Of a DNA stretch of 44,802 nt, positions 16,637-17,958 are shown piece by piece. Source of the stretch: Candidatus Limnocylindrales bacterium (GTDB lineage: Bacteria; Chloroflexota; Limnocylindria; Limnocylindrales; CSP1-4); assembly GCA_038320305.1 (NCBI GenBank), contig JBBQEC010000001.1, positions 1 to 44,802 on the forward strand, written 5' to 3'. The position numbers and the translations under genes are program-made. Below the pieces are notes generated by a model. It was not told the DNA's origin. It did not search any database and was given only the letters and a program-made list of their open reading frames with translations. Position 1 is the first letter of the stretch. Every line of letters starts with the position of its first letter.

Positions 16637-17032
16637 GTGGTTCTTGGAACTGTGACGACCATATCGTACGAAGGCCCGGATCCGCAGGATGCCAAACTTC
16701 CTTTGACAACATATGAGATCCGGGTCGAGCAGGTGTTGCACGGCTCCGCTCCAAACGTGATCACAATCGGCCAAACGGGTGGCGTCTTGGATGGCACCAA
16801 ATATGAAGTCGACGGCGATCCATTGATGCACACAGGCGACCACGGAGTCTTTTATCTGCAGCAAGCGAAGACGGGCCCCGCCGCTGGACGATACTTCGTT
16901 CTTGGTGGCCCACAGGGACGGTTGATCGTCGAGCAGGATGGAACCTTGAGTCGCGTCGGATCGAGTAACGTGAATATTCCAACCGACATGACAGTCGACA
17001 AACTCGTGTCAGCCGGAGGCAGCGCCAATTAA
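16637..17032 (+). CDS. hypothetical protein, possibly 5'-truncated
   Basis: 131 aa with a GTG start. Beta-rich composition ('VVLGTVTTISYEG...TYEIRVEQVLHG...GDHGVFYLQ'). No signal peptide or start codon in the in-frame upstream sequence. Converges on the DnaB-tail gene with a 4-nt overlap. Confidence 0.35.
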   Translation: MVLGTVTTISYEGPDPQDAKLPLTTYEIRVEQVLHGSAPNVITIGQTGGVLDGTKYEVDGDPLMHTGDHGVFYLQQAKTGPAAGRYFVLGGPQGRLIVEQDGTLSRVGSSNVNIPTDMTVDKLVSAGGSAN

Positions 17033-17958
17033 TGGCTGCCGTTGGCCGGTGAGTAATAGCCGGCGTAGTTCTTGTCTTCCGTCGCGTATGACACGAAGCG
17101 GGTCTGCTTCTTCTTGAAGTAGAGCTTCGTGTCGCCGGTGGGGCCGTTGCGATGCTTGGCCAGGCGCAGGTTGATGACCTCGCCCTCCGGATCCTCGTCC
17201 TCGCCGCCACGTTCCTTTTCGCGCCACAGGAACATGACCAGGTCCGCGTCCTGCTCGAGAATTCGAAGCAAGAGATTGGCGAACAGGATCAGTTCGGCTG
17301 CCTCCTGGGGATCATCGATGTCGACGACGTGGTGGCCCTGCTCGTTGCGGATCGCCATGATCGCGCCCGCGAATAACTGTGCGCGACCTTGGTTTTCGGA
17401 CGTTTCCAGCGCCGGGTCCGCGAGCGGCCCGCCGGGGTTGAACGCCGCGAACATGACGTCGCGACCGGTTACGCCACGGCCCAAACCGGCGGTTTGGCGC
17501 ACGCGATGTTCAACACGCCGGTATGCCGCGAGCACGGCCGTCGAATATGCGCCACGACGGAACGACGGCATCGCGTCAGTTGTTAGGTCTGGGTCGAGCA
17601 CCAGACCGCCGAGCAGGTCGTCAGCTCGGATTTCGAGTAGGTATCCCGGCACGTCTAGGCTGTCGGCCGAAGGGGTGAGCATCTCGAAAGCTGAGCTCTG
17701 CGAGGGATGAGGCGCCAGCATCAAGTGGTTTCGTAGCCACTGCCAGCCTCGTGCAACGGCAGCGACCACCTCGTCGGCGTGCTGTTGTGAGAGTCCGTTC
17801 TCCCGGGCCTCGATAGACGCGTCATTCATCGCATTCCCAGCATTCGGATGTCGGCTGACAGCGATTTCGCGACGGAGATATCCGACGAAGAGGAGTGCGA
17901 TCTCGTCGACGTCGAGAGTGGGCAGGACGCGCACGTCGACGCCGAAGCGCTGCGTCAT
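17029..17958 (-). CDS. TIGR02391 (Hypoth_Ymh, HEPN-like) domain protein fused in frame to a DnaB helicase C-terminal fragment
   Basis: 309 aa. Residues about 135-234: 'AVLAAYRRVEHRVR...LFAGAIMAIRNEQGHHVVDIDDPQEAAELILFANLLLRIL', with an R-x4-H motif (RNEQGH). Residues 235-309: 'EQDADLVMFLWRE...LRLAKHRNGPTGDTKLYFKKKQTRFVSY', which is the extreme C-terminus of replicative helicase DnaB (compare 'IEQDAD..MF.YR....I.AK.RNGPtG...L.F....trF'). Confidence 0.7.
   Translation of the reverse strand: MTQRFGVDVRVLPTLDVDEIALLFVGYLRREIAVSRHPNAGNAMNDASIEARENGLSQQHADEVVAAVARGWQWLRNHLMLAPHPSQSSAFEMLTPSADSLDVPGYLLEIRADDLLGGLVLDPDLTTDAMPSFRRGAYSTAVLAAYRRVEHRVRQTAGLGRGVTGRDVMFAAFNPGGPLADPALETSENQGRAQLFAGAIMAIRNEQGHHVVDIDDPQEAAELILFANLLLRILEQDADLVMFLWREKERGGEDEDPEGEVINLRLAKHRNGPTGDTKLYFKKKQTRFVSYATEDKNYAGYYSPANGSH

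Follow-up and report, generated by a model that had tools for sequence, protein, structure and literature searches.

The window analysed here is a stretch of 44,802 nucleotides (nt), the whole of contig JBBQEC010000001.1 of a Candidatus Limnocylindrales bacterium (Chloroflexota; assembly GCA_038320305.1), and positions are given on its forward strand. It carries a chimeric open reading frame (ORF) of 309 amino acids (aa), in which a protein of the TIGR02391/Ymh family of the HEPN superfamily runs in frame into the C-terminal tail of the replicative helicase DnaB (Table 1). The gene immediately upstream, 282 aa long, may be co-transcribed with the chimeric ORF; it had no family match in library scans and is absent from 51 Ymh loci. 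On the other side, the DnaB tail meets a convergent ORF of 131 aa that is doubtful as a gene (GC content at third codon positions, GC3, of 0.61) and shows no relationship to the convergent gene beside dnaB in relatives.

A preliminary description of this DNA had proposed a single 309-codon ORF with a TIGR02391/Ymh pattern and an R-x4-H motif, and profile searches bear this out. The Pfam family Hypoth_Ymh (PF09509) matched aa 121-234 with an E-value of 1.4e-20 and 73.8 bits against a cut-off of 25, covering profile positions 3-119 of 119, and the NCBIfam model TIGR02391 scored 48.9 bits against a cut-off of 39.45, so that the TIGR02391/Ymh assignment clears the curated thresholds along the full domain. 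The R-x4-H motif holds the predicted catalytic dyad of HEPN ribonucleases (RNases); when the protein is aligned with nine stand-alone homologues, residues N205 and H209 of the motif are invariant and position 204 is either R or K. The first 120 residues are also common to the stand-alone homologues, with a conserved GWQWLRNH and tryptophans W72 and W74, and this N-terminal domain was modelled by AlphaFold2 (AF2) as helices plus a small beta hairpin (predicted local distance difference test, pLDDT, 85-96). It may resemble a winged helix; its only Foldseek matches were non-significant ones to winged helix-turn-helix, MukE, and GntR proteins. The closest stand-alone homologues, at 55-60% identity, continue for 6-20 non-conserved residues past LLLRIL and then end; the Ymh protein in the window therefore lacks nothing but its C-terminal tip, the short basic C-terminus of its homologues being absent.

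Ymh, which has a conserved Rx4-6H motif, has been placed in the HEPN superfamily and linked to restriction-modification (R-M) operons, occurring either alone or with the N-terminal partners paraMORC, AbiJ-NTD1, and AbiTii (Anantharaman et al. 2013; PMC3710099). Consistent with this, Ymh homologues at 40% identity to the protein studied here are followed directly by genes for a methylase and a ResIII helicase-type restriction subunit, as found in type III R-M. By analogy with its family, the Ymh part is predicted to be a dimeric HEPN RNase acting in abortive infection or in R-M-linked defence. It shares with its family the full profile, the R-x4-H motif, the family-specific N-terminal domain, and a defence setting, but it adds a 76-residue DnaB-derived extension at the C-terminus, whereas the described fusions are N-terminal and none involves DnaB.

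The switch from Ymh to DnaB is equally clear. DnaB_C (PF03796) matched aa 234-289 with an E-value of 1.8e-11, aligning only with profile positions 201-254 of 255, and the DnaB model TIGR00665 matched over its last ~58 positions only, with 53.5 bits against a cut-off of 385; the Pfam and NCBIfam matches of the ORF are all far beyond chance. The preliminary description had recognised this switch but set it slightly too late, at codon 235 (nt 17256) with 75 codons to follow, while nucleotide similarity to dnaB begins exactly at 17259, which is codon 234 and leaves 76 codons. The tail covers the part of DnaB from residue 384 to its C-terminus (408-465 in E. coli DnaB), and both EQDAD and the arginine-finger motif AKHRNGPTG are present. 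When four full-length DnaB proteins from close relatives were compared with all frames of the window by tblastn, only the tail was matched, and neither Walker A/B nor the DnaB N-terminal domain was found in any frame, in agreement with what had been read from the ORF list. Compared with a DnaB helicase, the chimeric ORF lacks the N-terminal domain (PF00772), the RecA core with Walker A/B, and motifs H1-H3, and the DnaB piece is a fragment that cannot act alone as a helicase. Its residues are, as we take it from established DnaB structures and from the E. coli alignment made here, internal strands of the RecA core, and for this reason it is unlikely to form an autonomous helicase-like surface. 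We infer that the piece, made up of three buried strands and the arginine-finger hairpin, is a passenger.

The AF2 model of the whole protein has a mean pLDDT of 79.5 and is confident over aa 1-257. Residues 121-250 are all-helical with pLDDT above 90, and the last HEPN helix continues through the first ~18 DnaB-derived residues. From aa 258 to aa 309 the pLDDT falls below 50, a value to be read with the limit that the input alignment held no homologues for the tail.

At the nucleotide level, the tail appears to have been copied recently from a chromosomal dnaB, to judge from comparison with the dnaB genes of other organisms. It is 94.4% identical over 177 nt (blastn) to the dnaB of locus L001, and the last ~60-70 residues of the chimeric ORF are 85-90% identical to DnaB of the class Limnocylindria. 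Over 59 codons shared with L001 there are eight synonymous and two non-synonymous differences, and both amino-acid replacements are the majority state among other DnaB orthologues. The resulting rates of synonymous (dS, 0.237) and non-synonymous (dN, 0.015) change give a dN/dS of 0.06, which is indistinguishable from that of dnaB-dnaB pairs. GC3 tells a similar story, as the tail (0.86) is close to dnaA, dnaN, and VanW (0.81-0.84), while the Ymh part (0.71) falls with the other island genes (0.70-0.75). L001 probably belongs to a different organism from the source of the window, because a 3.3-kb contig with a 100% identical VanW region was found in the Logan assembly of run SRR19962012, whereas L001 comes from SRR14001357. 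Decay had been named in advance as the mark of an inert remnant; the tail shows none, and the comparison is uninformative on that point, as a recent copy would give the same result.

On the minus strand, the junction reads ...CTT CGA ATT/CTC GAG CAG GAC..., against ...TCC GGA TCA/CTC GAA CAG GAC... in the dnaB of L001. The codons for L-E (CTCGAG) are compatible with both parents, since Ymh homologues have RILA, RIVERA, or RVLERA here, and the microhomology at the junction is therefore at most 6 nt. Overlapping EcoRI and XhoI palindromes span the junction (GAATTCTCGAG). We treat them as a coincidence because the junction codons match those of natural homologues; GAATTC occurs 11 times in the window, and CTCGAG occurs 41 times against 26.7 expected, a count reached by none of 100 shuffles. 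An engineered construct was rejected, as the R-I-L and L-E codons are natural on each side and CTCGAG is common in this DNA.

What the junction does coincide with is a known insertion site for inteins. The dnaB-derived sequence begins one codon past the +1 serine of the RESG/SIEQDAD insertion site in motif H4 (the slash marks the site). A Chloroflexota representative genome (locus L044, 7568-10195) encodes an 875-aa DnaB with a LAGLIDADG intein exactly at this site, reading RESG/C...LGLLGHLIGDG...SHN/SIEQDAD, and inteins likewise interrupt the dnaB genes of L036 (near 9990) and L064 (near 4670). An endonuclease-containing intein of mycobacterial DnaB was also reported at "insertion site a in motif H4" (Kelley et al. 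2018; PMC6195587). Among the proteins retrieved in our searches, P0280, P0292, and P0343 have an intein at RESG/SIEQDAD or two codons upstream (RE/SGAIEQD), and in relatives from the Chloroflexota and Actinomycetota, LAGLIDADG inteins of dnaB occupy these two neighbouring motif-H4 sites. Compared with such DnaB inteins, the fragment shares a breakpoint one codon past the RESG/S splice junction, but the window has no intein sequence and no HN-Ser junction. No intein splicing blocks (HN followed by Ser, Thr, or Cys) precede the tail, and the ...LLLRI of the terminal Ymh helix stands upstream of the break instead. A split intein was likewise rejected, as the window contains no intein blocks.

The Ymh-DnaB fusion is a singleton. 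In a collection of 5.8 billion clusters, the best 120 of 1585 matches included no protein other than the query itself (P0001) that combined the two Pfam domains. In an exhaustive search of 1.84 billion representatives, the best 150 matches were all single-stretch matches, some to the Ymh part and the others to the tail, whereas a protein with both would be expected to rank above them. Three matches that appeared to span the junction were C-terminal pieces of intein-containing DnaB proteins from the same clade, reading '...VVVHN/SIEQDADLVMF...' and '...VSHN/SGAIEQDSD...', and an intein splicing domain was confirmed with Pfam in two of the three. Metagenomes of the Joint Genome Institute returned nothing with the Ymh part as the query and 46 Ymh loci with the alignment, none of which had DnaB sequence, and no fusion was found in viral contigs, plasmids, or phages. 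The databases searched thus yielded none of the further TIGR02391-DnaB_C fusions that the preliminary description had suggested looking for. Isolated DnaB tails, for their part, are not rare as gene-calling or truncation products. Four short or read-through proteins (P0072, P0299, P0303, and P0314) consist of a C-terminal piece of DnaB that runs on into low-complexity sequence, and two small phage families, phrog_19347 and phrog_11530, match the DnaB tail.

The tail is also ectopic, lying away from the native dnaB locus. With the tail as the query, we collected 80 dnaB loci from species-representative GTDB genomes, 23 of them from Limnocylindria, and intact dnaB lies directly upstream of the match in all 80; orphan tails and islands interrupting dnaB are absent from every one. 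For synteny, the 23 Limnocylindria loci were joined by two from other assemblies, and all 25 have the gene order L9-DUF1232-...-LexA-dnaB-(conv255, a variable convergent gene)-Dodecin-MalT-like-HD-MFS. L9, DUF1232, LexA, conv255, Dodecin, MalT, HD, and MFS were found nowhere in the window, and comparison of the window with 27 dnaB loci (blastn and tblastx) matched the tail only. The 3' flank of dnaB is variable in relatives, but without recombinase-bearing elements. In L018 (10196-13937) and L023 (8398-14683), insertions of 3.7 kb and 6.3 kb separate dnaB from the next conserved gene; that of L023 holds FtsX/ATP-binding cassette (ABC) transporter and histidine-kinase genes, and the ORFs of that in L018 have no family matches. 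These insertions were rejected as mobile elements, as they contain no recombinase.

The chimeric ORF lies instead beside the chromosomal origin. Positions 1,028-13,607 of the window run colinear with relatives' oriC regions (78-80% nt identity), and one of these relatives (L089) alone matches onward, through a 0.4-kb stretch, to 14,211. Between its DUF6855 gene and a 201-aa gene, the contig of L089, the closest relative, carries a response-regulator/histidine-kinase pair (6294-8410) that is missing at 13794-13805 of the window, with similarity on both sides, a small indel at the edge of the core and before the island. Downstream of DUF6855, these relatives carry an ion channel gene, smpB, ctpB, prfB, and secA, all of which the window lacks. 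In their place, the window continues as accessory DNA that includes many genes associated with defence or conflict, namely DUF2188/PDC-S16, a PD-Lambda-2_B-like protein with a helix-turn-helix (HTH) and an M78 domain, an RHS toxin, HIRAN, an M78 peptidase, and a CBASS (cyclic-oligonucleotide-based antiphage signalling) cluster; a Dyp peroxidase and LuxR are also present. The fragment had been suggested to mark one boundary of this island, but the tail lies ~3 kb inside accessory DNA that begins at ~14.2 kb. Within the island, the 193-aa M78 peptidase (39607-40188) is divergent to the CBASS genes and is possibly a CapP-type regulator, and a 151-aa ORF (32356-32811) overlaps the stop of the RHS gene by 4 nt and is possibly an immunity gene. 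One of the Ymh homologue loci (L083) is also near an RHS toxin and an integrase.

Table 1. Features of the chimeric ORF and its surroundings in the window.
Feature	Position	Strand	Basis or remarks
Chimeric ORF, 309 aa, Ymh/HEPN protein with DnaB C-terminal tail	17029..17958	-	ORF list, Pfam, NCBIfam
N-terminal domain, aa 1-120	17599..17958	-	Alignment with stand-alone homologues; no Pfam match
Ymh/TIGR02391 HEPN-superfamily domain, aa 121-233, complete to profile end	17260..17598	-	PF09509, TIGR02391
R-x4-H motif, R204-N-E-Q-G-H209	17332..17349	-	Alignment with nine homologues
dnaB-derived fragment, aa 234-309 and stop	17029..17259	-	Pfam, NCBIfam, tblastn, nucleotide comparison
Fusion junction	17254..17264		Minus strand CGA ATT / CTC GAG; codon comparison with L001/L002 dnaB and Ymh homologue C-termini
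Upstream gene, 282 aa	17965..18813	-	6 nt (17959-17964) between its stop and the start codon of the chimeric ORF
Convergent ORF, 131 aa	16637..17032	+	Stop overlaps tail stop by 4 nt (TTAA)
Core oriC-proximal chromosome	1028..14211		recF, dnaN, dnaA, rnpA, yidD, yidC, jag, VanW, DUF6855
Accessory/defence island	14212..44802		Contains chimeric ORF; no counterpart downstream of DUF6855 in relatives
DUF2188 protein, 83 aa	within 19462-23054		PADLOC candidate PDC-S16 match, E-value 1e-31
Dyp-type peroxidase	19768-21267		Between DUF2188 gene and HTH-M78 gene
HTH-plus-M78 protein, 368 aa	21613-22719		PD-Lambda-2_B match, E-value 2e-46; 112-aa ORF just upstream
RHS-repeat protein, 2282 aa	within 25511-32811		DUF6531 and immunoglobulin-like domain
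HIRAN-domain protein, 247 aa	35633-36376		Neighbouring ORFs without family match
CBASS-like cluster	39607-43598		SMODS cyclase 40896-41966; TIR-SAVED effector 42435-43598; M78 peptidase

Taking these observations together, we lean, with modest confidence, towards the view that this is a real but accidental chimeric gene, in which a Ymh/HEPN defence gene carries a passenger DnaB tail. A stand-alone TIGR02391/Ymh gene in the variable island beside oriC would have been joined to a ~215-231-bp copy of a chromosomal-type dnaB 3' end, with the loss of its last ~6-20 poorly conserved codons and its stop, and the join would have used at most the 6 nt of microhomology (CTCGAG). As the join is in frame, translation would continue to the end of the dnaB-derived frame. 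Of the three origins that had been put forward in the preliminary description, chance fusion comes closest to this view. LAGLIDADG enzymes cleave DNA only a few bases from where they insert, and the match between the breakpoint and the intein site suggests that a homing-endonuclease break released the fragment. More specifically, the endonuclease of a dnaB intein may have made a double-strand break in an intein-free dnaB, releasing or exposing the fragment, which could then have been captured during end-joining repair. This origin is plausible given that such enzymes cut so near their insertion site and that the breakpoint is one codon from it, but we regard it as tentative, and as a good deal less secure than the accidental fusion itself.

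Several points weigh against this account. The junction is attested by this contig alone, and the fusion ORF is absent from the Logan records of SRR19962012; the 282-aa neighbour and the DUF2188 gene are likewise not on record in that run, and the result is uninformative rather than negative. A "recent copy" is judged here from other organisms only, and the missing decay, which is equally expected of a selected and functional tail, therefore cannot separate a recent and neutral tail from a selected one. As C-termini differ among DnaB proteins, the dnaB-derived piece has no sharp 3' limit. For a random breakpoint in a gene of 1.36 kb, we estimate that a match to the intein site would arise by chance in ~0.5-1.5% of cases, and the window contains neither an intein nor a homing endonuclease. 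Finally, a Foldseek search of the predicted structure against the PDB gave no significant match, the best HEPN protein being AbiV (9bj5) with an E-value of 2.9, and the four-helix up-down fold of HEPN proteins is thus not confirmed by structure.

The strongest competitor to an accidental gene is an artefact of assembly or binning, by which the contig would be chimeric at 17259 and the gene present in no cell. Alleles of dnaB with and without the intein would perhaps branch the assembly graph exactly at the intein insertion site, and such a branch is plausible as inteins do occur at this site in the clade. The fusion is, moreover, a singleton from a contig of a metagenome-assembled genome, and it was not recovered in the Logan assembly of the run with the identical VanW contig. 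On the other hand, neither flank of the ~230-nt piece belongs to the dnaB locus, and the assembly would have had to go wrong twice, independently, on either side of a very short node. What the parents have in common at the junction, 6 nt at most, is also much shorter than the k-mers of any assembler. In addition, the reading frame is kept, and the contig contains no Ns. We consider an artefact unlikely, though deserving of some weight.

Less probable still is that the tail is the footprint of an integrative element that attached at the 3' end of dnaB, whether as the displaced native end, which was the first of the earlier proposals and would put the remainder of dnaB past the end of the contig, or as a replacement copy carried by an element, since decayed or relocated (the attP side). 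Displaced 3' gene ends are familiar at the borders of prophages and islands, as with the icd pseudogene copy that adjoins e14 or phage 21, and the tail resembles them in being the isolated 3' end of an essential gene, stop codon included and with a pattern of purifying selection, that adjoins mobile-looking accessory DNA. Two relatives, L018 and L023, with their insertions of 3.7-6.3 kb just downstream of dnaB, could be taken to point the same way, but what these carry are ABC-transporter and histidine-kinase genes rather than recombinases. In contrast to icd-e14 and phage 21, the locus is not the native one, there is no integrase and no att repeat, and no intact copy stands at the other border within the contig. 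Neither integrase nor transposase was found in the ORFs scanned across the window, which also holds no tRNA, tmRNA, or other Rfam family, no repeat of the junction, and no second dnaB copy (the contig ends 27.5 kb upstream); within the contig, neither the recombinase nor the matching repeat that the preliminary description had advised looking for at the far end of the island was found. The conserved neighbours of dnaB are missing from the window as well, which contradicts a native displaced 3' end. The downstream flank of the tail is unlike the dnaB flank of all 25 relatives, with the oriC core 3 kb away instead, and no relative has an orphan tail or an island within its dnaB.

A functional fusion, the last of the earlier proposals, finds no support here. 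In this scenario, the DnaB tail would be an integrated decoy or sensor that couples the HEPN RNase to phage proteins, such as helicase loaders or inhibitors, with a binding site on the C-terminal face of DnaB. The tail is in frame and retains every DnaB motif of this region at a dN/dS of 0.06, the ORF lies in a defence island, and HEPN/Ymh domains are known in fusions with varied partners (PMC3710099), all of which would fit a selected tail. However, the known Ymh fusion partners are N-terminal to the HEPN domain (PMC3710099), the fusion is unique among billions of proteins and 46 Ymh loci, and a recent copy would account just as well for the low dN/dS. The tail consists of internal RecA-core strands rather than an autonomous domain, and AF2 models it as disordered, leaving aa 258-309 at low confidence and having had no tail homologues in its alignment. 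A functional role of this kind is accordingly very improbable in our view, and we give just as little credence to its bait variant, in which the tail mimics the C-terminal face of DnaB or its arginine-finger hairpin and phage binding switches on the HEPN RNase. In plants, NLR (nucleotide-binding leucine-rich repeat) immune receptors with integrated decoys join part of a host protein that pathogens target to an immune effector, and a decoy reading of the fusion imagines the same architecture, by analogy only. Were it true, the bait would be a bacterial counterpart of these receptors, but the DnaB piece shows neither conservation, nor recurrence, nor an autonomous fold.

Read as an accidental chimeric gene, the finding is of modest weight. 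It adds one more Ymh/HEPN defence gene, and it illustrates how gene fragments can be stitched onto defence genes in variable islands. The ORF is prone to being mis-annotated, either as a "replicative DNA helicase, partial" or as a new domain architecture, and its record is worth flagging. What is new is the coincidence of the breakpoint with the motif-H4 intein site of DnaB. If the junction is real, it would document a case in nature of a homing-endonuclease break giving rise to the ectopic capture of a fragment of an essential gene, and such capture would be one route to new fusions and, in principle, to decoys.

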